Origin: an uncultured Candidatus Saccharibacteria bacterium
GTDB taxonomy: Bacteria > Patescibacteriota > Minisyncoccia > Phycocordibacterales > JACOZG01
Direction: 5' to 3'
Assembly (NCBI GenBank): GCA_964564105.1
Contig: CAZLZS010000011.1
Location: 1 to 28,785 of the forward strand
DNA: 28,785 nucleotides
Numbering within the stretch: position 1 is the stretch's first letter; every line of letters begins with the position of its first letter. This document shows, in pieces, positions 211-24,194 of this stretch. Made by a program: the position numbers and the translations under genes. Under the pieces are notes generated by a model, which was given only the letters and a program-made list of their open reading frames with translations, was not told where the DNA came from and did no database searches.

Positions 211-1266
211 ATGAGAAAAACTTTAAAAATTGGTTCACGAATAATTGGTCCGGGACGACCCATCTTCATCATCGCGGAGCTTTCCGGCAATCACCATCAA
301 GACATCAATCAGGCCATGGCTTTGATTGATGTCGCCGCCGACGCCGGAGCGGATGCGATTAAGTCGCAAACTTACACTGCCGGTACAATCACACTTAATT
401 CCGACACTGAACCCTTTCAAATCAAAGTCAACGACGCCTGGAAAGGTCAGACGCTTTATGATTTATATAAGCAGACGTTTACGCCGTGGGAGTGGTTACC
501 GAAAATGAAAGAGCGGGCCGAGGCCAGGGGCCGTTTCTTTTTCACCAGTGTTTTTGATCCGACCGCGGTTGATTTTATGGAGCAGATCGGGGTTAAGTTT
601 TACAAAGTAGCTTCGTTCGAAGTGGTGGATATTCCTTTGCTTCAGAGAATCGGCCAGACCAAAAAGCCGGTGATTATGTCGGGCGGTATGGCGACTGATG
701 AAGAATTGGCGTTGGCCCTAAAGACCCTGCGCGAGTTCGGTTCACCGGCCGTGGCTTTGCTCCACTGCCTTAGTTCTTACCCGGCCCGGCCGGAAGAAAT
801 GAATCTCGCGACCATTCCGGAACTGGCGCGGAAATTCGAAGTGGTGGCTGGTCTGTCAAATCATTGTCTTGATAATCGGATTGATTCTTTAGCCGTAGCC
901 GCGGGCGCGGCGATTATTGAAAAACATTTGACCTTGCGGCGATCGGATGGTGGACCGGACGCGGCGTTCTCGCTTGAGCCGGAGGAGTTCAAAGATCTGG
1001 TCAAGAGGGTTCGCCAGACCGAAACAATCATGGGCCGGCCGCAATCTAGCGCTGGCGAGAAAGAAACCGAGAACATTGTTTTTCGTAAGTCGTTGTTTGT
1101 CGCTAAACCGATCAAGCGAGGCGAAAAATTTACCCGGGAGAATGTTCGGTCGGTGCGCCCGGGCCATGGCCTCGCGCCGAAATATCTCGACGAAATTGTC
1201 GGCCAAACCGCCAGCCGTGACATCAAAATGGGGACTCCGCTTTCATGGGCTTTGATCGAAAAATAA
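211..1266 (+). CDS. NeuB/PseI/LegI-family nonulosonic acid (sialic acid-type) synthase
   Basis: 351 aa. N-terminal IFIIAELSGNHHQD..AGADAIKSQTY is the hallmark NeuB TIM-barrel start. C-terminal SAF/antifreeze-like domain (ENIVFRKSLFVAKPIKRGEKFTRENVRSVRPG). Confidence 0.85.
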   Translation: MRKTLKIGSRIIGPGRPIFIIAELSGNHHQDINQAMALIDVAADAGADAIKSQTYTAGTITLNSDTEPFQIKVNDAWKGQTLYDLYKQTFTPWEWLPKMKERAEARGRFFFTSVFDPTAVDFMEQIGVKFYKVASFEVVDIPLLQRIGQTKKPVIMSGGMATDEELALALKTLREFGSPAVALLHCLSSYPARPEEMNLATIPELARKFEVVAGLSNHCLDNRIDSLAVAAGAAIIEKHLTLRRSDGGPDAAFSLEPEEFKDLVKRVRQTETIMGRPQSSAGEKETENIVFRKSLFVAKPIKRGEKFTRENVRSVRPGHGLAPKYLDEIVGQTASRDIKMGTPLSWALIEK

Positions 1267-2411
1267 TTTTACCCTTCGATATCGGGTTTTATGATCAACG
1301 ACATCCCGATTTGCCCGAGTTTCTGCCGTTTGAGCTAAGGGTTGATCGGCGGTCTGGTTTAATCTGTCAGAAAACCAACGCGTCAGTGAGGCGAGCGCTC
1401 AAGCTCTATTATACTCTTGGTGGTTACGCGTCCACGCCCTTAGGTGAAGGCGATTACGGTCAACGTCAGGGGGACGAAGTTTTCTCTCTTTTGGAGTCAG
1501 CCATTCTCGCGCGCGGCCGGAAAATTAGCGAAATGAGTTTTCTGGAAATCGGCGCCGGCTACGGCTATTTGCTTTATCGGTTGAAGCAGTCCGGTGCGAA
1601 ACTAACTCTCGGGCTGGAACCCGGCAACGAAGGAGTCGTCGGGGCCAGAAAATACCAGATTCGGATTCTTCAGGAATTTTTTCCCACCAATCAGCTTCAG
1701 GAAAAATTCGATTGCGTTTTTTCTTATGGTGTTTTAGAACATATTGAGAATCCACGATCGATTTTTAAGAAAATAACTGAAGTTTTAAACCAAGCCGGAA
1801 TAATTTTTATGGCGGTGCCGGATTGTGAGATGAAAATGGCCATCGGCGATCCATCCATCATCTCTCATCAGCATGTCAATTATTTTACTAAAGATTCTAT
1901 GACGGAATTGTTAGCCAGTGCCGGTTTTACCAAAATGAAGATCGAGAGTCATTCCGGTCGAACGATGCTTATCGCTTCAGCCATAAAAACCGCTAGCGGT
2001 CACGTCAGGTTGAGAAAGACATCAGACGATGCTAGACAGCTTACGATTGACTTCTGGAAAAATTTAAGGAATAATGTTAGGTCGATCCAAAAATTAATCG
2101 ACGAGTTGGAAAAAATTTCTAATAATCCAATCGGTTTTTACGGCGCTGGTTGCTCGGTCCTCAAGGGACTTTTAAAAATGAAAAGTGAACCGCGTCTTTT
2201 CGACAGCGACGAGGTAAAATGGGGGAAACATGTTGCTGATTTCCAACGACCAGTCGAATCTCCTCAAGCGCTCGTTCAGAACCCGCCAGCCGCAATTTTT
2301 ATCACCCCGATTGATTATGACAAGGAAATAAGAGATTATCTAAAGAGTTTAATTGGACTAAAATTAATTAGAGTAATTTCTCTTAAAGAAATTTATCAAT
2401 GGAAAAAGTAA
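1245..2411 (+). CDS. Class I SAM-dependent methyltransferase (sugar C/N/O-methyltransferase-like)
   Basis: 388 aa. Glycine-rich SAM motif I LEIGAGYGYLL and an acidic motif-II-like stretch. The C-terminal region resembles the C-terminal domain of NDP-sugar C-methyltransferases. Overlaps the upstream gene by 22 nt, suggesting operon coupling. Confidence 0.65.
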   Translation: MGFDRKIILPFDIGFYDQRHPDLPEFLPFELRVDRRSGLICQKTNASVRRALKLYYTLGGYASTPLGEGDYGQRQGDEVFSLLESAILARGRKISEMSFLEIGAGYGYLLYRLKQSGAKLTLGLEPGNEGVVGARKYQIRILQEFFPTNQLQEKFDCVFSYGVLEHIENPRSIFKKITEVLNQAGIIFMAVPDCEMKMAIGDPSIISHQHVNYFTKDSMTELLASAGFTKMKIESHSGRTMLIASAIKTASGHVRLRKTSDDARQLTIDFWKNLRNNVRSIQKLIDELEKISNNPIGFYGAGCSVLKGLLKMKSEPRLFDSDEVKWGKHVADFQRPVESPQALVQNPPAAIFITPIDYDKEIRDYLKSLIGLKLIRVISLKEIYQWKK

Positions 2412-3337
2412 AAAATCTCTTGTTTACTTGCGCTGGTGGAAATGCCGTGCAGTATCTGGCCAAACGTTTACTCGGCCGTTTTAATGTCTTTCTAGTTGAT
2501 GGCAGTGATCAAAGTTTCATCGCCGGAGAGATCGGGGCGCCCTTTGTCCGAGTGCCTTTCGGCAATGATCCGGCTTATGTTCCGGAAATCAAAAAGCTGG
2601 TCAGTAATTGGCAGATAGATTTCATTGTGCCAGGCGCCGATGAAGAACTTGTGCCCTTAGCGGAAGCTTACGAGGAAGCAGAGCTTCCGCCGCTCGTCAT
2701 GCCGTCCTTGGTTTTTACTCAGTCAGTTTTACACAAAAAGAATCTTATGAAGATTTTGGCGGATAAGAACATCTCTAAACTTTTGCCGTTCGAAAACATT
2801 GAAGAGATTAAGTATCCAGCCGTGGCCAAGCCGATTTACGGCCGTGGTTCGCGCGAGTTCCACATTATCAAGAATCCAACCGAGCTTGACGGCTATCTCA
2901 AACTCTACGGGAAACATTTTGGTGAGATTGTCGTTGAACCATATATCGCCGGTGACGAGTATACCGTTTCAGTGATTGTCAACAACAAAAATAAAATTAT
3001 AGGCATTGTGCCAAAGAAAGTTATTCTAAAACGGGGAATCACTCGGGTCGCTGTCTCTGAAAAAAACGAGGTGATAGATACAGTTTGTAGAAAAGTGATA
3101 GCGGAGTTAGATCCGCGCGGTCCCCTTAATGTTCAGCTGAAGTTTTTTGAGAATCAGGTTTATATTTTCGAAATCAATCCGCGTCTTTCCACCACTGCGG
3201 TTTTAACTGATCAATGTTTCGGTAATGAGGTTGAACTGTTTATAAAATATTTCGGCGATGAAAAGATAGATCACCCACCGATAATGAAAGAAAACGTTTT
3301 TCTTTATCGTTTTGATCAGAATTATTTTAGGTCATGA
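2399..3337 (+). CDS. ATP-grasp family ligase (carboxylate-amine ligase-like)
   Basis: 312 aa. The fold pattern (ATP-binding K..KP, EPYIAGDEYTVSV, FEINPRLS) is typical of ATP-grasp enzymes. Start overlaps the previous stop by 13 nt. Confidence 0.65.
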   Translation: MEKVKNLLFTCAGGNAVQYLAKRLLGRFNVFLVDGSDQSFIAGEIGAPFVRVPFGNDPAYVPEIKKLVSNWQIDFIVPGADEELVPLAEAYEEAELPPLVMPSLVFTQSVLHKKNLMKILADKNISKLLPFENIEEIKYPAVAKPIYGRGSREFHIIKNPTELDGYLKLYGKHFGEIVVEPYIAGDEYTVSVIVNNKNKIIGIVPKKVILKRGITRVAVSEKNEVIDTVCRKVIAELDPRGPLNVQLKFFENQVYIFEINPRLSTTAVLTDQCFGNEVELFIKYFGDEKIDHPPIMKENVFLYRFDQNYFRS

Positions 3338-4185
3338 AGATTTTAATCATCGGCGGTTCACGTTTTATGGGGCCGCGAATCGTAAATTTGCTTATGGCGC
3401 ACGGTCATAATCTGACGGTTTTTAACCGCGGAACAATTATTGAACCACCACCTGGCGCCAAATTTATTAAGGGTGATCGCGATCTAGGATTTAAAATCAC
3501 CGATCATTTCGATGCCGCCATTGATACTTGCGCTTATAATGGCCAGCAAGTCGCCGGCGTTTTCCGGGAACTTAAATTTGATTTCTACTTGCACATTGGT
3601 ACAGCGGCTTCGTACCGAAAACCGGAAAGGTTCCCCCTGGTTGAGGAGATGCCAATCGGCGATTGGCCGTTGTGGGGAGATTATAATAAAGGTAAGGTCG
3701 AAGCTGAGAGGACACTGGAAAAAATCGGCCGATCATATGTTGTTCTCCGCCCCGTTTACATTTTAGGGGTGGCCAATCATGTAGCTCGTGAGAGGTTTAT
3801 CTATTCTAAAATAAAACAAGGAGAGAAAATTATTTTACCTGGTGATGGTAAAGCTAAGGCCCAATTTGTTTTTGTCCAAGATGTTGCCGCCGCGGTCGTG
3901 CTTTTGGTGGAGAATAAGATCAGCGGAATTTTCAACTGTGCCGGCGACGAAATAATCACCTTGCATCAATTAGTGTCAGAGATGGCAAAAGTTGTTGGCC
4001 GGGAGGCGAGATTAGGTTTTAATCCCGCCACCACCGGGGTTAATTGGCGAAGTGAAGAATTCCCATTTGCCAACCAAGATTTCTATTGTTTGAACACTAA
4101 GATCAAAAGGCTCGGTCTTAGATTTACCCCACTCCTTGCTGGTCTGAAAGCTGATTATGAAAATTATTATCGAGGAATCGTTTGA
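3334..4185 (+). CDS. NAD-dependent epimerase/dehydratase (extended SDR)
   Basis: 283 aa. N-terminal Rossmann motif MKILIIGGSRFMGPRIVNLL. ATGA start/stop overlap with the upstream gene. Confidence 0.75.
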   Translation: MKILIIGGSRFMGPRIVNLLMAHGHNLTVFNRGTIIEPPPGAKFIKGDRDLGFKITDHFDAAIDTCAYNGQQVAGVFRELKFDFYLHIGTAASYRKPERFPLVEEMPIGDWPLWGDYNKGKVEAERTLEKIGRSYVVLRPVYILGVANHVARERFIYSKIKQGEKIILPGDGKAKAQFVFVQDVAAAVVLLVENKISGIFNCAGDEIITLHQLVSEMAKVVGREARLGFNPATTGVNWRSEEFPFANQDFYCLNTKIKRLGLRFTPLLAGLKADYENYYRGIV

Positions 4186-4188
4186 TCT

Positions 4189-4848
4189 ATGAAAACATTT
4201 ATTGTTAGTGATATCCACGCCAACTATCAAGCCCTGATTAATCTATTGTCTATTCTGCGGCCGACAACCGATGACCAGTTGTTATTTTTAGGCGATTACT
4301 TGGATAAAAATCCTTATGTCAGAGAGACGTTAGTTTTGCTAAAATCTCTTCAGGGAAAGTGCCGCTGCGTTTTCCTAAAAGGTAATCATGAATTTGTCTG
4401 GGTTAAATATTTAAAAGATAAGGAGATGGCCCGGCGTGAGTTTATTGAAAGTTACGGCGGTCTGGAAACCTTGCGTCAGTTTTCGGTTAGGCCAGAACTC
4501 ATGACCGCTTACTTAAAAATCATTGATCAGTCGGAGGATTATAAAATAGTCAGCCCGTACTTCGCGACCCACGCCGGCCTTTTGGCGGAACAACTAGACG
4601 ATCCTAAACCGCAGTTTACGGAACTAAATTATTTCGTTCGGCCGCGGCAGATGAATCTCGAGAAAAAATATCTCGGTCAGTATCGAATCGTCGCCGGGCA
4701 TACTTGTTTGGGGACGGAGCCGACTTTTGAAACTGGTTACATCAACATTGATCTCGGCGCTGGTTATCCCGGCGGTTTTATCGGTGCTCTAGATGTTTCG
4801 AGAAATGAAATTATTCGATCCGATGGCCGAAAATTTACGGTCAGATAG
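4189..4848 (+). CDS. Calcineurin-like metallophosphoesterase
   Basis: 219 aa. Metal-binding motifs VSDIHAN (D-x-H), GDYLD (GD), GNHEF (GNH[DE]). Confidence 0.75.
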   Translation: MKTFIVSDIHANYQALINLLSILRPTTDDQLLFLGDYLDKNPYVRETLVLLKSLQGKCRCVFLKGNHEFVWVKYLKDKEMARREFIESYGGLETLRQFSVRPELMTAYLKIIDQSEDYKIVSPYFATHAGLLAEQLDDPKPQFTELNYFVRPRQMNLEKKYLGQYRIVAGHTCLGTEPTFETGYINIDLGAGYPGGFIGALDVSRNEIIRSDGRKFTVR

Positions 4849-4882: not shown

Positions 4883-5551
4883 ATGACCAACGATATCTTA
4901 GTGATTGCCGCTCACCCCGACGATGAAGTTCTTGGGGTTGGTGGCACCCTGCTTCGGCACCAGAAGGCCGGCGATAATATTTTTATCCTGATTCTGGCCA
5001 ATGGCGAAAGTTCTCGGGATACCGGCGTTGAAGTGGAAAAACGTTTGAGGCAAGCCACTCAGGTGACTAAATGTCTCGGCGCTAAACTCTTTTTGGAAGA
5101 TTTTCCGGATAATGCTTTTGACAGCGTGCCGCTTTTAAAAGTTGCCAAAGTGGTTGAAAAAGCGGTCGCGGCGGCGAAACCGACCATTGTTTACACTCAC
5201 CATCCTTACGATCTCAATCTTGACCATCGTTTGACTTTTCAGGCGGTTTTGACTGCCTGTCGTCCTCAACCTGGTTTTCCCGTTGAAAAGATCCTCGCTT
5301 TTGAAACTTTGTCTTCGACCGAGTGGCAGACTAAAGATGGGGGCAATGCTTTTTGTCCGCGGCAGTACATTGATATTTCAGATTTTATCGATCAGAAGCT
5401 GGAAATTTTAAAGATCTATCAGGACGAACTTCGAGTTTATCCCCACCCACGTTCAATTGAAGGCGTTAAAATACTGGCTGCTTATCGAGGTTTAGAAGTC
5501 GGATTGAGATTTGCTGAAGCCTTTGAAGTCATTAGAATTTTACAGAGATAG
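4883..5551 (+). CDS. PIG-L/LmbE-family N-acetyl-sugar deacetylase
   Basis: 222 aa. N-terminal ILVIAAHPDDEVLGVGGTL is the signature HPDDE zinc-binding motif of LmbE/MshB/PIG-L deacetylases. Confidence 0.8.
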   Translation: MTNDILVIAAHPDDEVLGVGGTLLRHQKAGDNIFILILANGESSRDTGVEVEKRLRQATQVTKCLGAKLFLEDFPDNAFDSVPLLKVAKVVEKAVAAAKPTIVYTHHPYDLNLDHRLTFQAVLTACRPQPGFPVEKILAFETLSSTEWQTKDGGNAFCPRQYIDISDFIDQKLEILKIYQDELRVYPHPRSIEGVKILAAYRGLEVGLRFAEAFEVIRILQR

Positions 5552-5591: not shown

Positions 5592-6047
5592 ATGGAATTG
5601 CGACTAGCCACGATCGAGGATGCCTTAATCCTGTTTAATTGGCGGAATGACCCCGTTTCCCGGCAGAACTTTATTCATCAAGAATTGGTGAGTTGGGACG
5701 AGCATATCGCTTGGCTCAAGAATAGTTTAACCAATTTTCGTCGTCAGATTTTTATCGCTACAGTTAATGGTCGTCCGGTCGGGCAAATTCGCCTCGATGA
5801 GATTGATGAAGTTCGCACAGAATTATCATGGACGATCGCTCCTGAAGAGCGCGCTAAGGGTTATGGCAAGGAGATGGTGCGATTGGGGGCAAGTAAGGTT
5901 CCTAACGGACGAACATCAATTGCCAAGATCAAAAGCCACAACGAGGCCTCACGCCGCATTGTGAATAGACTCGGTTTCCAATTTAAAACTATATGTGATG
6001 GACTCGAGGAATGGACACTTTTTAAGAAAAAAGCCCAACGACACTGA
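5592..6047 (+). CDS. GNAT N-acetyltransferase, PseH-like (amino-sugar N-acetyltransferase)
   Basis: 151 aa. LFNWRNDPVSRQNF resembles the PseH (FKWRNHPDI) N-terminus. The acetyl-CoA-binding region R..G.G..L is present. An AGGAG Shine-Dalgarno lies 8 nt upstream. Confidence 0.7.
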   Translation: MELRLATIEDALILFNWRNDPVSRQNFIHQELVSWDEHIAWLKNSLTNFRRQIFIATVNGRPVGQIRLDEIDEVRTELSWTIAPEERAKGYGKEMVRLGASKVPNGRTSIAKIKSHNEASRRIVNRLGFQFKTICDGLEEWTLFKKKAQRH

Positions 6048-6079: not shown

Positions 6080-6982
6080 TTAAACCCCGTAAAACTCTTT
6101 GAAGGTCTGGATCTGTCGTCTGGCTGTATCCGATCCCCAGCGTATTTCGAGGCAAACCGTATCCATCTCTTGAATTGCTTTACGCAAACAAGCTGGCGGT
6201 TTGACATCGATGTAGTCATGATTATCTATTAGGGTTGGCGGAATACCCGAGAAGTGGCAAATTGGCCAGTGAGGTAGATCCAAGTACTGCTGGATGGCGG
6301 TTTTCAGATCAAGCTTCGGTAGATACCTCGAGAATCTTGGGTTCTTGGCTTGATTGACCATCACGATCAGATGGGTGAAGTCAATTAAACAGCGATGGCC
6401 GCGATCCATCATGATCGCCATATCGTCTGGAGTACCGCCGAAGCCCCAGTAGTTGTAAGTCACCCCAGCTTCTGATTCTTCTAAGATGACGAGTGGCGGT
6501 ACGTTTTCCAGAGCTACTGTTCTAGGGTCAGGATATTCAGTCAAGAACTCCACGATTTTTCTTCTCGCCACAGTATCAGTAGAGCTTTGACCATAACCAA
6601 CGTGGGCCACACCCAGCGGATGATGAGAAGCGATATTTAACCGTTTAGCCACCTCGATACCCCATTCAATGGTTTCTCGGTTCCACTGGGCCCAGCTCAT
6701 CTCTCCTTTATGATCGGCATAGACTCCTTTTTCATCAAGTGTTTGGCCAAAGTCTACACCCCTATTCTCGGCGCCGTAATGGATCATGAATTGCAGATCA
6801 GTCGGCAGTCGGTCGAGAATTTTCCGTAGGTCGCGGCTGGTAAGTTCGGGAGTAAATGACGGGTGTGCGACTAATAATTGCAGTCCATCGATCAAACCTT
6901 CGTTGAACAGGGCCATTTGCAGATTGTAATACTCATCTTGTCTGACCAGGTTTTCTAACAGTAGACCACCGTAGACCATCAT
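6080..6982 (-). CDS. Hypothetical protein, probably a xylose-isomerase-like TIM-barrel (sugar phosphate isomerase/epimerase, AP-endonuclease-2 fold)
   Basis: Called as a 305-aa ORF from 6997. A GAGGAG SD points to the internal ATG at 6982 as the real start (300 aa). Motifs TVALENVPP, HHPLGVAHVGYG and conserved acidic/His residues are typical of the fold. Convergent with the sugar operon. Confidence 0.5.
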   Translation of the reverse strand: MMVYGGLLLENLVRQDEYYNLQMALFNEGLIDGLQLLVAHPSFTPELTSRDLRKILDRLPTDLQFMIHYGAENRGVDFGQTLDEKGVYADHKGEMSWAQWNRETIEWGIEVAKRLNIASHHPLGVAHVGYGQSSTDTVARRKIVEFLTEYPDPRTVALENVPPLVILEESEAGVTYNYWGFGGTPDDMAIMMDRGHRCLIDFTHLIVMVNQAKNPRFSRYLPKLDLKTAIQQYLDLPHWPICHFSGIPPTLIDNHDYIDVKPPACLRKAIQEMDTVCLEIRWGSDTARRQIQTFKEFYGV

Positions 6983-7164
6983 TATGATTCTCCTCATTCA
7001 CTGTATTCAAAGAACTTAATTTACTGGTGACGACAGTCGTCCCAGACCATCTAAATACATACACTATTAATGTTTAAAAGTCAATACTCCCAGAGGGAAC
7101 CGATTTTCGTACACTATAACCAGACGTAAGATAAAACATTACAAGCCTTGTTGCATTAAATTTT

Positions 7165-8319
7165 ATGATTCTTTACGAACACGAGGGCAAAACTTTGCTC
7201 CAATTCGCCGGTATCACTGTTCCTAAGTCGCAATTGTTAACTAAGGAAAACGAATCGGTAACGATGTTTCTACCCTGCGTTCTTAAAGCCCAAACTCTAT
7301 CCGGGAAGAGGGCTAAGGCGGGCTGGATCATTAAAGTTGGAGATAAAAAAGAAATTTTACCGGCCCTGCATCGTCTCTTTGGCCAATCAATCAATGGTGA
7401 ATTAATAAAAAATGTTTTGGTTGAAGAACAGATCCAATATGAGGAGGAATGGTATGTTTCTTTTTCTTATAATCCAGAAACTCGCTGTCCCGTGATCATT
7501 GTTTCTTCTGATGGTGGTTCGGGAGTTGAAGAGCAGGAAAAGATGAAAGAAATTTTCGAGACAGATATTAGAATATCTTCACTGCCGGCTATAGGCGGCT
7601 TACCAGCCATGTTGATGAGTACTTTATTTAAGCTTTTTTTAGACCAAGATTGCCTATTGCTCGAAATAAATCCATTAGTTAAGACGAGTGTCGGTTGGAT
7701 GGCGCTTGATGCTAAAATTAAGTTAGACGATAATGCCTCCAATCGGCATCCCGAGTGGGCTTATACTCCTCGCTTGACATCTGGACACCAGATCACTGAT
7801 AGGGAGATTGCCGCTAAGCAAATAGATCAAGATGACCATCGTGGGACGGCTGGTTCCAGTTATCTTGACCTTGATGGTGACATCGCTGTCCTTGCTTCCG
7901 GCGGCGGGGCGTCGCTGGTCGCTATGGACGCGTTGATTGCGGCTGGTGGTCGGCCAGCAAATTACACTGAATATTCTGGGAATCCACCGCGGGAGAAAGT
8001 GATTAAATTAACCAAGATTGTATTATCAAAGCCGGGTTTACATGGGCTATGGATTGTCGGTGCCTTAGCTAACTTTACCGATATTTATGAAACGCTCTCC
8101 GGAATTATTTCCGGCTTGCGGCAAGCAGAAAAATCTTTAGGTCGAAAATTTGATTTTCCAATTGTAATTCGCCGCGGTGGACCATATGACGAGAAGGCCT
8201 TTGCAATGTTAAAAGAAGTAAAAGATTTTGATCTTACAATTTATGGTCCTACGATTTCTATTGCTGAATCAGCCAAAGCGGTAGTTCAATTATCAAAAGA
8301 TTACGGCAGTCGAGTATGA
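7165..8319 (+). CDS. Succinyl-CoA synthetase beta-subunit-like ATP-grasp protein (AclB/CcsA-like candidate)
   Basis: 384 aa. MILYEHEGKTLLQFAGITVP resembles SucC MNLHEYQAKQLF. Also LLLEINPLV, and DGDIAVLASGGGASLVAMDALIAAGGRPANYTEYSGNPP matching the SucC C-terminal CoA-ligase domain. Confidence 0.8.
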   Translation: MILYEHEGKTLLQFAGITVPKSQLLTKENESVTMFLPCVLKAQTLSGKRAKAGWIIKVGDKKEILPALHRLFGQSINGELIKNVLVEEQIQYEEEWYVSFSYNPETRCPVIIVSSDGGSGVEEQEKMKEIFETDIRISSLPAIGGLPAMLMSTLFKLFLDQDCLLLEINPLVKTSVGWMALDAKIKLDDNASNRHPEWAYTPRLTSGHQITDREIAAKQIDQDDHRGTAGSSYLDLDGDIAVLASGGGASLVAMDALIAAGGRPANYTEYSGNPPREKVIKLTKIVLSKPGLHGLWIVGALANFTDIYETLSGIISGLRQAEKSLGRKFDFPIVIRRGGPYDEKAFAMLKEVKDFDLTIYGPTISIAESAKAVVQLSKDYGSRV

Positions 8320-9218
8320 ATTTACTTTTACCACCAGACAGTCGATTTATTGGTCAAGGTATCACTGGAGCGGAGGGTCGATCTTCTTTGCCGACCATGC
8401 TCCGTTATGGTACTCAATTAGTGGCTGGCGTCACACCCGGTAAGGGTGGTCAAGAGTTGGAAGGAGTACCCATTTTTAATACTGTCAAAGAAGCGATGGC
8501 GGTAGTGGGTCCGGTAAACAGTAGTGTTCAATTTGTTCCACCGCTTTTTACTTTAGCGGCAGTTCAAGAAGCGCTTCAGGCTGGCATAAAATTTATTCTT
8601 ATCGGTGCGGAAAAGGTACCAACTCGTGATACGGCTACCATTATCAGTTTAGCTAAAACTCATCAGGCAACGATTATTGGTCCGAGTTCAGTTGGTCTGA
8701 TTAATCCTAAGAGGAAATTGAAAATCGGAGCGATTGGCGGCAATAATCCAGACAGAGTTTATACCCCGGGTAACATATCGGTTATTTCTAAATCAGGCGG
8801 GATGACTTCGGAAATAAGCTTGCATCTTAAACAGAATGGTTTGGGGGTGAGTTGGGCGGTAGGTATCGGTGGTGATCGGATTATTGGTAGCGATTTTGTT
8901 GACTGGCTCAAAGCACTCGAAAGTGATTCCGAGACAGCCGCCTCAGTCATTTTTGGAGAATTGGGCGGTACTTATGAAGAGGCGGCCGCGGTTGCCGTCC
9001 AGTCTGGCGCAGTGAAGAAACCTGTAATTGCTTTTATCGCCGGAGAGTTTGCCTCGCGTCTTCCCTCGGAGGTGCAATTTGGCCATGCAGGTGCTTTGAT
9101 TGAAGGTGGCCGCGGTCGGCCCGAGCACAAGCGACAAGTGCTGTCCGCGGCCGGTATTCGAGTGGTGAAGCATTTCGACGAGGTCAGCCAGCTAGTTAAA
9201 GAAGCTCTGGGTAAGTAG
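8316..9218 (+). CDS. Succinyl-CoA synthetase alpha-subunit-like CoA-binding protein (AclA N-terminal / CcsB-like candidate)
   Basis: 300 aa. GITGAEGRSS..YGTQLVAGVTPGKGG, GPSSVGLINP, SKSGGMTSE and the phospho-His loop QFGHAGALIEGG align motif-for-motif with SucD. Four-nucleotide overlap with the upstream gene. Confidence 0.85.
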   Translation: MNLLLPPDSRFIGQGITGAEGRSSLPTMLRYGTQLVAGVTPGKGGQELEGVPIFNTVKEAMAVVGPVNSSVQFVPPLFTLAAVQEALQAGIKFILIGAEKVPTRDTATIISLAKTHQATIIGPSSVGLINPKRKLKIGAIGGNNPDRVYTPGNISVISKSGGMTSEISLHLKQNGLGVSWAVGIGGDRIIGSDFVDWLKALESDSETAASVIFGELGGTYEEAAAVAVQSGAVKKPVIAFIAGEFASRLPSEVQFGHAGALIEGGRGRPEHKRQVLSAAGIRVVKHFDEVSQLVKEALGK

Positions 9219-9227
9219 AATATAAAT

Positions 9228-9902
9228 ATGGCGTTGCTAGTCTCTCATCGAGATGAAGAATCATATTTTGGCGATGAACTACAGCTTGATGTCGGTCAAA
9301 AACTTCATTTCGCCGAGATGATTTTTTGGCTCTTGGCGGAACGCCGGCCCACCGCCGCCGAACTGGCAGTATTTGGACTAATTCTTAATCTCTCAATCGA
9401 TCACGGATCCGAGACGCCATCGGCCAAGGCGACTATCGCGGCGACCAAAGCCGGTCATCCGATAAGCGAGGCAGTCGCCTCCGGGATCAAAGAAATCGAT
9501 CATGTTCATGGTGGAGCGCAGGAAGCCTTGATGCCGATCTTGTATCAAATGGTAAAGGGAAATGTGTCCGCCGCGACTATTATTCGGGATTATCTTTTAC
9601 GAAAAGAACGGGTGCCTGGTTTTGGCCATCGACTTTATACTAAGGTAGATCCGCGGGCGGAATTAATCTTAACTACCCTGCAAGCTCACAGTTTAGGTGA
9701 AGAATATATCAAGGCCGGTTGCTCTCTTGGACAAACACTCAAGCAGGTCACTGGTAAAGACTTGCCGTTTAATATCGACGGTGCGATTGCGGTCGCACTC
9801 TGCGCCTTTGATTTCCCTTCAGCGCTCGGTGCTGCTGTGTTCATCGTCGCGCGTACGCCGGGTTTGTGTGCCCATTTTATAAGTAATCGCCCAGAGACTT
9901 AA
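9228..9902 (+). CDS. Citrate synthase-like catalytic (C-terminal) domain protein; citryl-CoA lyase-like
   Basis: 224 aa. HVHGGAQEA (His274-type), PGFGHRLYTKVDPRA (citrate synthase GFGHRVYK..DPRA, His320-type) and NIDGAIAV (Asp375-type) are the three catalytic signature regions of citrate synthase, ACL C-terminus and Ccl. Confidence 0.75.
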   Translation: MALLVSHRDEESYFGDELQLDVGQKLHFAEMIFWLLAERRPTAAELAVFGLILNLSIDHGSETPSAKATIAATKAGHPISEAVASGIKEIDHVHGGAQEALMPILYQMVKGNVSAATIIRDYLLRKERVPGFGHRLYTKVDPRAELILTTLQAHSLGEEYIKAGCSLGQTLKQVTGKDLPFNIDGAIAVALCAFDFPSALGAAVFIVARTPGLCAHFISNRPET

Positions 9903-9941: not shown

Positions 9942-12074
9942 ATGTCATTAAATTCTATTTTGAAATGGGCAATTACGGTCGGGCTCATCGTGCTGACAGC
10001 CGTGCCGCTCTTAGTGTCTGAATCACTCTTTTTCCCCTTCATCACTGGTAAGGGGTTCTTTTTTCGGATTATTATCGAAGTGATTTTTAGCTTGTGGTTG
10101 ATTTTGGCTTTACGCGATCCGGGCTATCGGCCGCGATCGTCCTGGATTTTTAAGGCCGCGGCCGGGTTCATTATTGTGTTGATTCTGGCCACAGTGTTCA
10201 GTGTAAACTCCTACCGCAGTTTCTGGTCAAATTACGAGCGGATGGAGGGTCTGGTGAGTTATCTGCATCTTTTCGCTTTTTTTCTGATTTTGGTTTCGGT
10301 GATGAAAACCGAACGACTCTGGGGCTGGTTTTTGCACAGCTCGCTGGTCGTTAACGCGGTGATCGGCGTCTATTCGCTTTTGCAGCTTGCCGGCAAACTG
10401 GAAATTCATCAAGGCGGCGCGCGCGTGGACGCCACGCTCGGCAACGCCACTTATCTGGCGGTCTATGTATTATTCCATATTTTCCTGTTGAGTTTTTTAC
10501 TTTCCCGTTTGCTTAATGCCGGCCGCTGGCGGAAAGAATTAAGCCAACGTTTGGCCGGCGCTGGTTATTTACTATTATTGATTCTTGATCTGCTCGTGCT
10601 TTTTCAGACTCAAACTCGCGGCGCAATTTTGGGTTTGGTCGGCGGCGTTCTGATCGCCGCCGTCTGGCTGTTTTTATTTTCGCCGCGCGCGACTCGCGCG
10701 CGGCGCTTGGCTTCCGGCTTGATGATTGCGGTTTTAGTTTTGATCAGCGGATTTTTAACGGTCAAAGACACAACTCTGGTACAAAATAGCGCCACCCTCA
10801 AACGTCTAGCGGACATTTCACTGACCGAGCAGACTACTCGCTCGCGCTTCATGGTTTGGAACATGAGTTGGCAGGGATTCAAGGCGCGGCCGGTTTTAGG
10901 TTGGGGGCCGGAGAATTTCATTGTGGTTTTCAACAAATATTACAATCCGTTGATGTATGATCAAGAGCAATGGTTTGACCGCGCCCATAACGTTTTTTTC
11001 GACTGGTTGATCGCCGCCGGTATTTTAGGCCTATTGTCTTACTTGATGCTTTTCGTTGTCGTGATCTACTATCTTTTCAAACTTAGGGGTGGGGGAGGGT
11101 TCAGGGTTAGTGAGCAGGCGATAATTGTCGGCCTGCTCGCTGCTTACTTTCTTCACAACTTTTTTGTCTTTGACCAACTCGTGAGTCTCTTACTATTTTT
11201 TGGTCTTTTGGCCTACCTGCATACGAGATTTGCGATTGATTGGTCAGAACGGGTCAAGCAGTATTTTATGGCGTCAACGTCGCGTTGGCTGGCGACTGCT
11301 GGCGTGATCGCCGCGGTCATTGGTCTGGTGATAGTTTTTTACTTTGTCAATTTGAAACCGGCGTTGGCCTCACGGACTTTGCTTAGTGCTTTAAGTTTGC
11401 AACGTGCTCCAACAGAAAGTCTCAAACGTTTCGAGCGCGTTTTCGCCTACAACACTTTCGGTTCGGCCGAGGCGACCGAGCAATTGATGCCATTATCTTT
11501 GTCGCTTGCCCGGAATCAAGATGTACCGATTGCTCTAAAACAAAAATTTATCAATCTCGCGGCTGAACGTTTAGAGGCCGAGATCAAACGCGCGCCGTGG
11601 AATGCTCGTTACTATCTATTTGCCGGTTCATTTTATCTTCGGATCGGACAAGTTGATTTAGCGCTCGAACGTTTGGAAAAAGCGCGTGAATTGTCGCCGA
11701 CCAAGCAGGCCATTCTTTTTGAACTTGGGCAGGCGTATTTGACTAAGGGTGATAAAACCGCCGCCCTGGAGATTTTCCGTGAGGCCTATGAGTTGGCGCC
11801 CGGTTTTGATCAGGCCAGGGATTACTTAATAAATATGTATGTGGAGATAAAACAGTTCGATAAATTAATAGCTTTATGGCAAGAAAAAGTGGCTCTGGCG
11901 CCGACTAACGCCGATTACCGCGGTTCGCTTGGCCTATCATATTTTTACGCGGGCCAACGCGAGCAGGCAGTGGTTGAATTTCAGAAGGTGGGTGAATTAA
12001 ACCCTGCTTATCAGCCAGAGGTTGAACGGGTAATTCGCGAAATCCGCGCCGGCCGGAATCCTTTGCCTCAATAA
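9942..12074 (+). CDS. Polytopic membrane protein with Wzy_C/O-antigen-ligase-like domain and C-terminal TPR repeats
   Basis: 710 aa with more than 10 predicted TM helices. Wzy_C-type motif FDRAHNVFFDWLIAAGILGLLSYL. The C-terminal ~250 aa are soluble TPR-like repeats (LGQAYLTKGDKTAALEIFREAYELAP...). An extended -10 TGTTATACT (9924-9932) lies 10 nt upstream of the ATG, so the mRNA looks leaderless. Confidence 0.75.
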   Translation: MSLNSILKWAITVGLIVLTAVPLLVSESLFFPFITGKGFFFRIIIEVIFSLWLILALRDPGYRPRSSWIFKAAAGFIIVLILATVFSVNSYRSFWSNYERMEGLVSYLHLFAFFLILVSVMKTERLWGWFLHSSLVVNAVIGVYSLLQLAGKLEIHQGGARVDATLGNATYLAVYVLFHIFLLSFLLSRLLNAGRWRKELSQRLAGAGYLLLLILDLLVLFQTQTRGAILGLVGGVLIAAVWLFLFSPRATRARRLASGLMIAVLVLISGFLTVKDTTLVQNSATLKRLADISLTEQTTRSRFMVWNMSWQGFKARPVLGWGPENFIVVFNKYYNPLMYDQEQWFDRAHNVFFDWLIAAGILGLLSYLMLFVVVIYYLFKLRGGGGFRVSEQAIIVGLLAAYFLHNFFVFDQLVSLLLFFGLLAYLHTRFAIDWSERVKQYFMASTSRWLATAGVIAAVIGLVIVFYFVNLKPALASRTLLSALSLQRAPTESLKRFERVFAYNTFGSAEATEQLMPLSLSLARNQDVPIALKQKFINLAAERLEAEIKRAPWNARYYLFAGSFYLRIGQVDLALERLEKARELSPTKQAILFELGQAYLTKGDKTAALEIFREAYELAPGFDQARDYLINMYVEIKQFDKLIALWQEKVALAPTNADYRGSLGLSYFYAGQREQAVVEFQKVGELNPAYQPEVERVIREIRAGRNPLPQ

Positions 12075-14325: not shown

Positions 14326-15888
14326 ATGTGGCTTAGTCGGACGCTTCGTTTTTTTCAGCGGCTGATTAAAATCAAGCTGATAATTTTGCGGCTGGCGTTT
14401 GATTGGCGGACCTCTCGGCCGGTACGTTTTCGGATGTTTTTCGAGCGCGCCGGCGGCGCGTTTTTGAAATTTGGTCAGATCCTTTCGCTCCGGCACGATT
14501 TCATCCCGCCGGCTTACGCCAACGAGCTGCTCAATCTCCTGTCGCGCGTGGAGCCGCAGCCGTGGTCGGCCTTGCGCGAGGTCTTTATCGCCGAGATTGG
14601 CGCGCCGCCGGAAAAAGTGTTTCAGCAATTTGATAACCAGCCGATCGCTTCGGCCTCGATCTCGCAAGTTTATCGCGCCGTCTTGCCGGGAGGAGAAACA
14701 GTCGCCGTTAAGATTCAGCGCCCGGGGATCCGCGAAGTGTTTGAAACTGATTTTATTCTGGCCTCATTTCTCGGCGGTCTCTTGTCGATTTTTCGTTTTT
14801 TCGATTCCTTTCAGATTCAAGATATTGTCAGCGAATTTATTTCCGCCACGCGGCGCGAGCTTGATTTCCGAGAAGAATCGAAAAATTCGTTGGCTCTCTT
14901 AGCTCACTCGAGCGAGCATCCCCAAACCATTATCCCCAAATGTTACTCGGAGCTCTCGACCGAGCGGGTGCTGGTGAGCGAATACATGTCCGAGATTTTG
15001 TCAGTGGAAACAGTGCTCGAGCGGCTCGCAGTCAATCTCGGTTATGCCGCCGAGCTTAAAGAGCATCAGCGGATTGATCTTGAAGCCCTGGCCTATTATT
15101 TCGTTTTTGACATTATGCGGCAGTATTTCATCGACGGCTTTTTTCACGCTGATCCGCATCCGGCTAATCTCTTTCTTGCGCCGGACAATCGTTTGGGTTA
15201 TTTTGATTTTGGCATTATCGGGCGGGCAGGCAAGAATCGCCTCGACCTACTCCGAATCATCTACGGTATCGCTAAACGCGATCTCAATTTTTCGAGCCGA
15301 CATTTCCTCCGTTTCGCCAAGAGTGCGATTGCCAAAGAAATGGAGCTCTTCAAGCAGAAAGATCGGACCACTTACGATCGTTACGCCAAAGTGCTCGAGA
15401 AACTGGAAGAAATTATGACCGACAATCTGCACGCCGATCTCGAAAAGATTCTCGCGCCCTGGTACCAAGATCAATCTTCTCGCGATTATCATCATTTGAC
15501 CTCTTCTATCGTTATTTCCAAAATGATCCTCCGAGCTCGGGACTACAGTATCTATTTGCCGCGTGAGATCATTATGTTTTTCCGTACTTTGATTATTTCC
15601 GATATGGTTGCTCTGCGCCTGGCGCCAAATTTTAACATTATGAAAGCACTCAATCGCTTTTTTGATCGTTATCCGCTCGGTGTGGCCGAGGAGTTGATCA
15701 CGGCGCGGGTCCACGAAGCTAAACTCGAAGAAACAGTGGACGCGGCCGCGCACCTGAGTTTTGAAGAACTGTTGGCGCAGAAGGAAGCCGAGCAAGAAGA
15801 ATTGAGTCTGGCCAAGGAGCGCCTAATCAATCTGATTGCCGCTTACGCCGAGGATTATCAGGAGGTTCGCCAGTTGCTGAAGACTTAG
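14326..15888 (+). CDS. UbiB/ABC1/AarF-family atypical protein kinase
   Basis: 520 aa. FLKFGQILSLRHDFIPPAYANEL, IASASISQVYRAVLPGGETVAVKIQRPGI and HADPHPANLF are the ABC1/UbiB kinase-like signature motifs. Confidence 0.85.
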   Translation: MWLSRTLRFFQRLIKIKLIILRLAFDWRTSRPVRFRMFFERAGGAFLKFGQILSLRHDFIPPAYANELLNLLSRVEPQPWSALREVFIAEIGAPPEKVFQQFDNQPIASASISQVYRAVLPGGETVAVKIQRPGIREVFETDFILASFLGGLLSIFRFFDSFQIQDIVSEFISATRRELDFREESKNSLALLAHSSEHPQTIIPKCYSELSTERVLVSEYMSEILSVETVLERLAVNLGYAAELKEHQRIDLEALAYYFVFDIMRQYFIDGFFHADPHPANLFLAPDNRLGYFDFGIIGRAGKNRLDLLRIIYGIAKRDLNFSSRHFLRFAKSAIAKEMELFKQKDRTTYDRYAKVLEKLEEIMTDNLHADLEKILAPWYQDQSSRDYHHLTSSIVISKMILRARDYSIYLPREIIMFFRTLIISDMVALRLAPNFNIMKALNRFFDRYPLGVAEELITARVHEAKLEETVDAAAHLSFEELLAQKEAEQEELSLAKERLINLIAAYAEDYQEVRQLLKT

Positions 15889-16899: not shown

Positions 16900-17733
16900 A
16901 TGAACAAGGAAATTTTGGAGAAGCTAAAAACATATTTTGAAAACCGCGACGAGGTCGTAATGGCGTTTCTTTTCGGCTCACGGGCCGAGGGGCGGGCACG
17001 GAACGATTCTGACTGGGATATCGGTGTGTACTTTAGACCGAAGACCAAGGGAGAATTGGAAACAAAAGAACGGTATACAGGCGAGAGTGAAATTTCTGGC
17101 GAGGTGGCGCGGCTTCTCGGCGCGGAAACTGATGTCGTCGTTCTTAATCGCGCCCGCCCGTCGCTCGTATTTGACGTGCTCAATTCGGGGAAAATCCTCG
17201 CCAACAAGGATGAAACATTGTACCTGGAACTGCTCTCAAAAACTCACTACGAAGCCGTTGACTACTGGAATTTCGTGAAAGAATTTTGGGATATCAGACA
17301 ACAAGCCGCGTCGCTGACCCCTAAAGCCAGGGCATTTCTTGCGGAGCATTTAACGTTTCTTGAAAACGAGTTTGCCGATTTTCCAAAATTTCAGAACCTC
17401 TCGTGGAAGGAGTACCAAGAAAACCGAAGCCAGCGGCGAGAGATTGAGCGCTGGGTAGAAAATGTTGTAATGAGCTTAATTGATATTGCAAAGGTCATTC
17501 TTGCCTCCGAGAAAAAAGATGTGCCGCAGACCTATAACGAGACAATCAAACGATTTGCGATTTCTTTTACCGATGAGAAGGCAGCTGAAAAATTGGCGGA
17601 GTTTGCCGAATTGAGAAATTTAGTAGTGCATGAATACCTTGATTTAAGATTCGCGCGCATTAAAAGGTTTATTGAAGAAGCGGAGACGCAATTGCCTCCG
17701 ATTATTGAGAAGATTAAAGAAATTATAAAATGA
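16900..17733 (+). CDS. Fused minimal nucleotidyltransferase (MNT) + HEPN domain protein (MntA-HepT-like single-chain module)
   Basis: 277 aa. N-terminal MNT motif LFGSRAEGRARNDSDWDIGVYF (GS-x9-10-D-x-D). C-terminal HEPN R-x4-H-x-Y motif AELRNLVVHEY. Confidence 0.75.
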   Translation: MNKEILEKLKTYFENRDEVVMAFLFGSRAEGRARNDSDWDIGVYFRPKTKGELETKERYTGESEISGEVARLLGAETDVVVLNRARPSLVFDVLNSGKILANKDETLYLELLSKTHYEAVDYWNFVKEFWDIRQQAASLTPKARAFLAEHLTFLENEFADFPKFQNLSWKEYQENRSQRREIERWVENVVMSLIDIAKVILASEKKDVPQTYNETIKRFAISFTDEKAAEKLAEFAELRNLVVHEYLDLRFARIKRFIEEAETQLPPIIEKIKEIIK

Positions 17734-23967: not shown

Positions 23968-24039
23968 ATTCCGGTGTAGCTCAATGGTAGAGCGGCTCCC
24001 TGTTAAGGAGATGGTTGTAGGTTCGAGTCCTACCACCGG
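23968..24039 (+). tRNA. tRNA-Asn (anticodon GTT)
   Basis: TCCGGTG-TA-GCTC-AATGGTA-GAGC-G-GCTCC-CTGTTAA-GGAGA-TGGTT-GTAGG-TTCGAGT-CCTAC-CACCGGA-G. Perfect 7-bp acceptor stem, D and T arms, U33, GTT anticodon, A37. No encoded CCA. TAGAAT -10 lies about 8 nt upstream. Confidence 0.9.
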
Positions 24040-24194
24040 AGTTGACAAATAAAAAGATAAGATGTAGTTATTATAGTTGGATTAGATAGAGCCTAAATGG
24101 CTTCGTTTTATGGTCTTTGATAACTGAGAAAATCTGGGTCTGTAACGGTTATAGACTCTTGATTTAGGCAAACTTCTGAAAGGAGAAGTCAGCT

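Follow-up and report, generated by a model that had tools for sequence, protein, structure and literature searches.

The three adjacent genes at positions 7165 to 9902 of contig CAZLZS010000011.1, a stretch of 28,785 nucleotides (nt; here called the window) from an uncultured Patescibacteria bacterium, very probably encode, judged from sequence comparison, a citryl-CoA synthetase (CCS, with the subunits CcsA and CcsB) and a citryl-CoA lyase (CCL, gene product Ccl). With moderate confidence we favour the explanation that these enzymes cleave scavenged citrate to acetyl-CoA and oxaloacetate and thereby feed the N-acetylation steps of the pseudaminic acid (Pse) cluster around them. The enzyme system itself is known; the new element is that the CCS/CCL operon is conserved in many Patescibacteria and can lie within pseudaminic-acid clusters. 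In the list of open reading frames (ORFs) the three genes, with products given in amino acid residues (aa), are:

7165-8319 (+): ccsA-like gene, putative large (SucC/AclB-like) subunit of citryl-CoA synthetase, 384 aa
8316-9218 (+): ccsB-like gene, putative small (SucD-like) subunit of citryl-CoA synthetase, 300 aa
9228-9902 (+): ccl-like gene, putative citryl-CoA lyase, a short protein of the citrate-synthase fold, 224 aa

The three same-strand ORFs have the lengths given in the original prediction, which had been made from the bare sequence. They had been proposed to be translationally coupled; the ccsB start lies over the ccsA stop in a 4-nt overlap (ATGA), and ccl starts close to the ccsB stop after a 9-nt spacer without overlap. 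Upstream, 167 nt separate ccsA from a divergently oriented ORF of 305 aa, and downstream a Wzy_C-TPR gene starts 39 nt after ccl. Homologue searches for the triplet proteins returned 721 and 6319 matches. Because there are thousands of homologues and 60 of 80 loci from representative species show the three genes in the same order, the triplet does not consist of chance ORFs. A consensus scan for promoters and terminators between positions 5500 and 12300 gave site counts that were not above those of shuffled sequence, and therefore no transcription or operon boundary was drawn. Rfam and tRNA scans of the window had tRNA-Asn at 23969-24042 as their sole match and showed no riboswitch or leader near the operon.

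In place of a reference-rooted phylogeny, the entries of the PDB were ranked by bit score, both with the single sequences and with family profiles. The Ccl-like protein matched CCL (6hxp_A) with 2e-31 and 112 bits, whereas citrate synthase reached 1e-13 and about 54 bits and the lyase modules of ATP-citrate lyase (ACL) about 46 bits. With the family profile the scores were 173 bits for CCL, 90 for citrate synthase and 87 for the ACL lyase module. The AlphaFold model had a predicted local distance difference test score (pLDDT) of 93.8, and its top Foldseek match was 6hxp with a query template-modelling score (TMq) of 0.91, followed by the ACL lyase modules at 0.85-0.89 and, lower, the citrate synthases at about 0.7. 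As had been predicted, the protein covers only the C-terminal half of citrate synthase, since the Pfam Citrate_synt match is confined to model positions 142-347 of 357. The active-site residues are located as follows:

9393-9863 (+): Ccl residues H59 (SIDHG), H94 (HGGA), H134/R135 (GFGHRLY), R143 (DPRA), D184 (NIDGA) and R209 (ARTPG)

HGGA occupies aa 94-97, GFGHRLY 131-137, DPRA 141-144 and NIDGA 182-186 with the catalytic Asp184; these motifs, and the GHAGA loop of the small subunit, were all found where the original prediction had read them. When aligned to citrate synthase, the His/His/Asp triad and the oxaloacetate-binding Arg and His residues are kept, and the Ccl residues correspond to H238, H274, H320, R329, D375 and R401 of pig citrate synthase. 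Across a family of 33 Ccl sequences with a mean column identity of 60%, H59, H94, H134, R135, D184 and R209 were invariant and R143 was conserved to at least 90%. The best NCBIfam families were all citryl-CoA lyases, with scores below the cut-off; for NF004869 this was 128.7 against 212 bits, and the match stopped at model position 226 of 263. Because the family is conserved at full length, the catalytic residues are invariant and the model is confident and CCL-like, the protein of 224 aa is no fragment.

The large subunit was recognised by Pfam as ATP-grasp_2 followed by Citrate_bind (PF16114, 'ATP citrate lyase citrate-binding', E 1e-25). Ranked as a single sequence, it was closest to CcsA (6hxq_B, 3e-57, 197 bits), then to Chlorobium AclB (145 bits) and then to SucC (109 bits, 2e-30); the profile scores followed the same order with 253, 204 and 165 bits. 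Against the NCBIfam SucC model it scored 164.5 bits, below the cut-off of 370. Three motifs of the citrate site were located by alignment to human ACLY (3mwd_A):

7969-7986 (+): EYSGNP motif, aa 269-274 of the CcsA-like protein; Gly272 aligns with Gly309 of human ACLY in the citrate site
8068-8079 (+): ANFT motif, aa 302-305; aligns with ANFT 345-348 of human ACLY, the citrate-binding loop
8167-8184 (+): IRRGGP motif, aa 335-340; Arg337 aligns with Arg379 of human ACLY, in VRRGGP

EYSG(272)NP is thereby placed on EYSG(309)AP of ACLY, and the equivalents of the substrate-specificity residues G309, N346-T348 and R379 are all kept. In the ACLY-citrate structure of Sun and colleagues from 2010, Gly309, Asn346-Thr348 and Arg379 are reportedly the citrate ligands, with Arg379 as a ligand of the carboxylate. 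Among 32 homologues of the CcsA-like protein, E269, Y270, G272, N273 and P274 of the first motif, A302, N303 and T305 of the second and R336, R337, G339 and P340 of the third were invariant, while F304 was conserved to at least 90%; the ANFT motif was more than 90% conserved among the 57 homologues from the fetched loci. The E. coli SucC sequence differs at the EYSG, ANFT and RRGGP positions. K41, E167, N169, D182 and the residues next to them were invariant in the family, and by comparison with SucC these residues would bind ATP and Mg.

For the small subunit, Pfam found CoA_binding, Ligase_CoA and Succ_CoA_lig. Its phosphohistidine loop was conserved in 56 homologues:

9081-9095 (+): GHAGA phosphohistidine loop, aa 256-260 of the CcsB-like protein

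The PDB ranking gave 2e-68 and 234 bits for the alpha subunit of succinyl-CoA synthetase (SCS; 2yv2) and 1e-57 and 199 bits for CcsB (6hxq_A). An alpha-type subunit holds the CoA site and the phosphohistidine and not the acid specificity, so that about equal nearness to SCS-alpha and CcsB is expected. The NCBIfam SucD model was matched with 277.6 bits, below its cut-off of 336. The SCS-alpha matches would suit an ordinary SucCD pair that stands beside a truncated and possibly non-functional piece of citrate synthase, as would the top NCBIfam names (succinate-CoA ligase), the name succinyl-CoA synthetase beta of some homologues from the Joint Genome Institute (JGI) and a fold search that does not separate SucC from CcsA. 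This explanation appears highly improbable in view of a large subunit that falls far under the SucC cut-off (164 < 370) and carries PF16114 with the ACLY-type EYSG, ANFT and RRGGP motifs, and of a Ccl partner that is a conserved full-length family with invariant catalytic residues and a confident CCL-like model. The original prediction had named two outcomes that would speak against it, a firm clustering with true succinyl-CoA synthetases and a lyase without the His/His/Asp triad. Neither was found, because the ACLY-type substrate residues and the citrate-synthase triad are conserved and the highest scores went to CCL and CcsA: the large subunit ranked CcsA over AclB over SucC and Ccl keeps its triad. 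Its claim of a citryl-CoA synthetase with a citryl-CoA lyase, or an unfused ATP-citrate lyase, is thus favoured by the score rankings, the substrate-site motifs and the Ccl fold.

If the triplet works like its homologues, the Hydrogenobacter thermophilus enzymes and ATP-citrate lyase, the histidine of the CcsB GHAGA loop would be phosphorylated by ATP that is bound to the ATP-grasp domain of CcsA. The phosphoryl group would then be passed to citrate held at the EYSG/ANFT/RRGGP site, giving citryl phosphate, from which CoA would displace the phosphate to form citryl-CoA. The separate Ccl protein would split citryl-CoA into acetyl-CoA and oxaloacetate with its His/His/Asp triad, and in the Pse-linked loci the acetyl-CoA may feed the PseH-like GNAT and other N-acetylations. 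We infer citrate as the substrate, cleavage as the direction and acetyl-CoA supply as the role; for this last part, a supply of acetyl-CoA from scavenged citrate, we see an even chance.

The contig of the window was also found in Logan assemblies of run SRR12113430 and neighbouring runs; one of these runs yields a contig of a 'NC_groundwater' Microgenomates MAG as well, and the sample thus probably came from groundwater. The distribution of the triplet was scanned with one genome per GTDB species. This gave 152 Ccl relatives, of which 80 were fetched as loci reaching 10 kb to each side of the match. The order ccsA-ccsB-ccl was the same in 60 of the 80 loci, and almost all of these belong to Patescibacteria (Daviesbacteria, Woesebacteria, Woykebacteria, Microgenomates, Giovannonibacteria, Lloydbacteria, Magasanikbacteria, Uhrbacteria and others). 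Outside this group, the triplet was present in two DPANN archaea (loci L060 and L061) and in one Bacillota and one Gemmatimonadota metagenome-assembled genome (MAG). Ccl was encoded apart from the SucD-like subunit in all 60 triplet loci. Homologues are publicly named 'citryl-CoA synthetase large subunit' (JGI) or 'ATP citrate lyase citrate-binding domain-containing protein' (NCBI), and others succinyl-CoA synthetase (some at JGI as beta) or acetate-CoA ligase.

No universal neighbour emerged when the flanking ORFs were clustered and the 114 genes directly beside the triplets were scanned with Pfam. The immediate neighbours were mostly housekeeping genes, such as those for pseudouridine synthase, sortase, sigma-70, NUDIX, TrpRS and FtsH. 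GlmS and other cell-wall genes recurred within a few related lineages, and for this reason their recurrence was not counted as independent evidence. A lone Ccl-like gene (30-37% identity) without adjacent CcsA or CcsB was seen in Acidobacteriota, Zixibacteria and some other MAGs (L065-L068, L071, L075, L078-L081, L084 and L086-L088). Many 'binchicken' MAG records titled 'uncultured Gammaproteobacteria' or 'uncultured Candidatus Saccharibacteria' also carry CCS/CCL operons (e.g. L010, L012 and L018-L022). These are 45-55% identical to the operons of Daviesbacteria and Microgenomates and group with them in a neighbour-joining tree, and the titles are probably placeholders or wrong taxonomy.

Genomes of the Candidate Phyla Radiation (CPR, or Patescibacteria) are described as being without the tricarboxylic acid (TCA) cycle, respiration and autotrophic pathways (PMC7143001, PMC8672522). 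Among the Hainich groundwater Patescibacteria MAGs, 14% have the pyruvate-to-acetyl-CoA gene K00174 (PMC8672522). The original prediction had noticed no other TCA gene in the window, and the Pfam and NCBIfam annotation of the 28.8 kb agrees; likewise, in the homologous loci no TCA gene was found among the Pfam-annotated genes, the scanned neighbours and the neighbour families that recur. A CO2-fixing reductive TCA (rTCA) cycle of the kind found in Aquificae and Leptospirillum, with the triplet as its citrate-cleavage step, is suggested by the best solved relatives, which are the H. thermophilus enzymes, and by CCS/CCL being the signature of the rTCA variant of that organism (10.1101/2022.10.25.513756). 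In the accessible part of a survey of 52,515 MAGs, CPR are not listed among the rTCA2 taxa, and the CPR studied so far have neither TCA genes nor autotrophic pathways (PMC7143001, PMC8672522). Because the host belongs to the reportedly TCA-less Patescibacteria, and with the TCA genes missing from the window and from the annotated and recurrent neighbours, a role in this cycle is very hard to credit.

The genes around the triplet in the window were assigned to a pseudaminic-acid cluster, in which those between 1245 and 5551 are sugar-tailoring genes:

211-1266 (+): pseudaminic acid synthase PseI (NeuB family; Pfam NeuB and SAF)
1245-2411 (+): methyltransferase (Pfam/NCBIfam)
2399-3337 (+): ATP-grasp enzyme (Pfam/NCBIfam)
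3334-4185 (+): epimerase-family protein (Pfam/NCBIfam)
4189-4848 (+): metallophosphoesterase (Pfam/NCBIfam)
4883-5551 (+): PIG-L deacetylase (Pfam/NCBIfam)
5592-6047 (+): GNAT N-acetyltransferase, PseH-like, presumed consumer of acetyl-CoA (Pfam Acetyltransf_3)
6080-6997 (-): protein of 305 aa without a Pfam or NCBIfam match, between the GNAT gene and ccsA
9942-12074 (+): membrane protein of 710 aa with Wzy_C (O-antigen-ligase-like) and TPR domains (Pfam Wzy_C and TPR)

PseI of the window scored 424.6 bits and passed the NCBIfam PseI equivalog cut-off of 340.25; PseI of locus L091 scored 402.1. The GNAT matched NCBIfam PseH with 9e-13, below the cut-off, and the GNATs are therefore called PseH-like but sub-threshold. 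For the 305-aa protein, a 39%-identical homologue fragment lies at 14380-14706 of the Pse-linked metagenome locus L094.

Including the window, the triplet stands within Pse glycan clusters (PseI, PseH-like GNAT, DUF218, Wzy_C-TPR) in at least 12 distinct loci. The others are:

L005 (=L009, L092): PseI-ccsA-ccsB-ccl-DUF218-GNAT-Wzy_C/TPR
L089 (=L015): CTP_transf_3 ... ccsAB-ccl-x-DUF218-PseI-GNAT-UDPG dehydrogenase-Wzy_C/TPR
L090 (=L030): GNAT-PseI-DUF218-GNAT-ccsA-ccsB-ccl, with WbuX/HisH/HisF-type acetamidino genes upstream
L091 (=L050): CTP_transf_3-ccsA-ccsB-ccl-DUF218-PseI-GNAT, with PseB- and PseC-like genes near
L046, L073, L076: Pse-linked; in L073 the Pse genes are upstream only and on the opposite strand
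L093, L094, L095, L156: Pse-linked metagenome contigs

In L005, L046, L076, L089, L090, L091, L093, L094, L095 and L156 the triplet sits between Pse genes. GNATs homologous to that of the window adjoin it in L005, L089, L090, L091, L093, L095 and L156, Wzy_C/TPR homologues close the Pse/CCS loci L005, L089, L090, L093, L095 and L156, and PseB-, PseC- and PseF-like genes and WbuX were found in L090 and L091. L156 has the gene order of L005, yet its Ccl is just 32% identical to that of the window. More than 5 kb of sequence lay to each side of the triplet in 34 GTDB loci; 7 of these were Pse-linked, where we estimate that chance would give about 1, assuming one randomly placed PseI per genome of about 0.7-1 Mb and ignoring shared ancestry. 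The Pse-linked loci were spread over three places in an unrooted neighbour-joining tree built from the concatenated triplet: early-branching positions of the main clade, one position within that clade and one in a clade apart from it. A literature search found no paper that joins nonulosonic or pseudaminic acid with CPR and no report of the CCS/CCL triplet inside pseudaminic-acid clusters, and neither citrate nor acetyl-CoA is mentioned in a paper about gene exchange among the Patescibacteria of Hainich.

Some further observations concern these clusters. The Wzy_C/TPR proteins are about 710-740 aa long (L005 11897-14113, L089 14543-16756, L156 12643-14826); Wzy_C resembles O-antigen ligases and O-oligosaccharyltransferases, and the TPR repeats are C-terminal. 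The protein may link the glycan that contains Pse to a protein or lipid of the surface. Almost all Pse-linked loci encode a DUF218 (PF02698) protein beside ccl or PseI (L005 10760-11392, L091 12725-13354, L090 8851-9474, L156 10648-11298); it is absent from the window. A canonical PseG hydrolase was not seen in the Pse-linked clusters, and it is pure speculation that the DUF218 protein might replace it. L095 contains the closest PseI relative, with 74% identity to the NeuB protein of the window. At 6092-7640 of this locus ccl is intact, but ccsA and ccsB are fragmented into a number of short ORFs, through either assembly frameshifts or decay of the synthetase genes.

As an alternative to its main proposal, the original prediction had considered that the triplet supplies an unusual acyl-CoA to the adjacent GNAT and sugar operon. 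The link to the sugar operon proved real and conserved; the acyl-CoA is most likely ordinary acetyl-CoA and not an unusual one. A pair of CCS/CCL type that acts on a citrate analogue, or that provides a non-acetyl acyl-CoA such as citryl-CoA to the GNAT for an unusual N-acyl pseudaminic acid, would fit the tight links that the triplet repeatedly shows to PseI and PseH-like GNATs, the gap of just 10 nt between GNAT and ccsA in L090 and the diverse N-acyl groups that Pse and legionaminic acid (Leg) are established to bear. It would also agree with the triplet proteins being shortened and below the curated CCL and SCS cut-offs, yet the citrate contacts are those of ACLY and the oxaloacetate-binding residues those of citrate synthase. 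The triplet is, moreover, equally conserved in the housekeeping contexts of most genomes, and the lyase, which is never missing, would work against the use of citryl-CoA as donor. We consider such an activity quite improbable.

The reading as citrate-cleaving CCS/CCL enzymes that serve Pse N-acetylation has a number of points weighing against it. None of the three proteins reached a curated NCBIfam cut-off, the Ccl-like protein lacks about 37-45 C-terminal residues of the characterised CCL and of the NCBIfam CCL models, and the CcsA-like protein is about 45 aa shorter than CcsA of H. thermophilus (384 against 429 aa). Since all three are below the cut-offs and Ccl is C-terminally shorter, they would represent a divergent, shortened clade of the CCS/CCL kind and not textbook orthologues, and for this clade the enzyme identity is judged by sequence comparison. 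The CcsB-like protein is slightly nearer to true SucD than to H. thermophilus CcsB. A fold search with the AlphaFold model of the CcsA-like protein (pLDDT 88.9) retrieved SucC, CcsA and ACLY alike with template-modelling scores of 0.65-0.75; as the fold does not discriminate between them, we relied on the sequence profiles and motifs. The ORF clustering and the Pfam scan of the 114 neighbours showed no citrate transporter and no oxaloacetate-using enzyme beside the operon in any locus. In most genomes the triplet lies amid unrelated housekeeping genes, and the Pse link is confined to a minority. For the presumed lack of TCA genes and of alternative sources of acetyl-CoA in the host, we rely on what is published about the phylum and not on this MAG itself. 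Finally, the ACL-type reaction is reversible and near equilibrium, so its direction is not readable from sequence.

Running in reverse, Ccl would condense acetyl-CoA with oxaloacetate and CcsAB would turn the citryl-CoA into citrate while making ATP, and all catalytic residues fit either direction. The ATP-citrate lyase of Desulfobacter postgatei is said to act in substrate-level phosphorylation, a finding attributed to Moller, Schauder, Fuchs and Thauer in 1987. The chemistry is reversible, with about -5.9 kJ/mol for citryl-CoA synthesis in the accessible part of the 2022 preprint (10.1101/2022.10.25.513756), and CPR are fermenters that depend on substrate-level phosphorylation (PMC7143001). 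Such a reaction would, however, use up acetyl-CoA in an operon whose PseH-like GNATs need it, and it requires a steady supply of oxaloacetate, for which no gene was seen near the operon. A simpler route from acetyl-CoA to ATP, acetyl-CoA synthetase, has been described for CPR (PMC7143001). The reverse direction is thus unlikely.

We return to citrate cleavage with acetyl-CoA supply. If the operon is functional in this sense, it would be an entry point for a host-derived metabolite in CPR of minimal metabolism. CPR are not known to synthesise fatty acids, so their demand for acetyl-CoA would largely be the N-acetylation of amino sugars, and a demand of this kind would explain the repeated recruitment of the operon beside PseH-type GNATs and PseI. 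Each Pse5Ac7Ac takes two acetyl groups and one phosphoenolpyruvate (PEP), and the PEP for PseI might possibly derive from the oxaloacetate that citrate cleavage yields. Tentatively, and with more doubt than belief, we propose that some Patescibacteria use the CCS/CCL operon as a module dedicated to co-substrate supply for the Pse surface-glycan pathway, with citrate of the host or the environment being split beside the pathway enzymes into acetyl-CoA for PseH-type N-acetyltransferases, and more broadly that many TCA-less symbionts among CPR and DPANN obtain their acetyl-CoA mainly from citrate cleavage.

CPR/Patescibacteria make up a large, mostly uncultured share of bacterial diversity, in which a citrate-cleaving operon would also be a source of acetyl groups for cell-wall and surface-glycan synthesis. 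The repeated placement in Pse clusters ties the scavenging of central carbon to surface glycosylation in episymbionts in a way that is testable. To the evolution of the TCA cycle, these enzymes would add a large and deep clade of unfused CCS/CCL outside autotrophs, and they call for caution when ccsA, ccsB and ccl are used as metagenomic marker genes for rTCA carbon fixation.

Other genes of the window were annotated besides the cluster. The ORF at 16900-17733 (+) encodes 277 aa, in which a Pol-beta-type nucleotidyltransferase domain (MNT-like antitoxin) is fused to a HepT-like RNase domain (toxin), with weak matches to the PADLOC candidate system PDC-S09. A protein of 310 aa at 27180-28112 (+) carries an NYN nuclease domain at the N-terminus and a weakly HAD-like part at the C-terminus, and matches PADLOC HEC-09 at 5e-17. 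At 24195-26750 (+) a vault-like protein of 851 aa, about the size of eukaryotic major vault protein (MVP), is encoded, with the Pfam domains MVP_shoulder (4.5e-27), Vault_3 and Band_7. It matches rat MVP (4hl8_A) with an E value of 3e-18 over residues 467-794 of the query and 459-789 of MVP, and its NCBI entry MBI2100952.1 is labelled hypothetical. For a CPR bacterium, a homologue of a vault protein is unusual.

Among known systems, the CCS/CCL homologues of Nanohaloarchaea, DPANN and CPR are the same gene set in ultra-small, TCA-less symbionts, and L060 and L061 carry the same triplet. A 2016 study (PMC4766312), in its accessible part, places CCS/CCL in Nanohaloarchaea with a proposed role in the ATP-dependent formation of acetyl-CoA and oxaloacetate. 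According to the accessible part of the 2022 preprint (10.1101/2022.10.25.513756), CPR and DPANN sequences annotated as SCS or citrate synthase are monophyletic with CCS/CCL. The accessible parts of these two sources do not describe the operon conservation across Patescibacteria or the embedding in Pse clusters.

CCS/CCL of H. thermophilus (6hxq, 6hxp) consists, like the triplet, of three separate polypeptides with the same domain set, and its CcsA and Ccl are the best solved relatives of the large subunit and of the lyase (TM 0.91). The original prediction had treated the division into three pieces as noteworthy, which did not stand, this being the canonical subunit composition of the H. thermophilus enzymes, reportedly since the work of Aoshima and colleagues in 2004. 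The two systems share the phosphohistidine loop, the citrate-binding domain and the His/His/Asp triad. They differ in that the identity is only about 31-33%, CcsA has 384 instead of 429 aa, and Ccl has 224 instead of 268 aa with about 45 C-terminal residues missing. The citrate loop reads ANFT in CcsA of the window, as in ACL, and ANNT in H. thermophilus CcsA. The host here is a presumably non-autotrophic, TCA-less CPR bacterium, the genes form one operon, and in some lineages this operon lies inside a Pse cluster.

ATP-citrate lyase (Chlorobium limicola AclB/AclA, 6hxj; human ACLY, 3mwd/6hxh) has the same overall chemistry as proposed for the triplet and the same citrate-site residues EYSG, ANFT and RRGGP, and its CCL module has the fold of the window Ccl (TMq 0.85-0.89). 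In ATP-citrate lyase this module is fused to the SucD-like subunit, whereas in the window it is a separate gene behind a stop codon and the 9-nt spacer, and CcsA matches the large subunit with a higher score than AclB does. SucCD has the same two-subunit architecture and fold, and the small subunit is about as near to SucD as to CcsB. Unlike in SucCD, however, the large subunit carries a C-terminal domain and motifs of the citrate-binding type, both subunits are below the cut-offs, and a CCL gene always follows.

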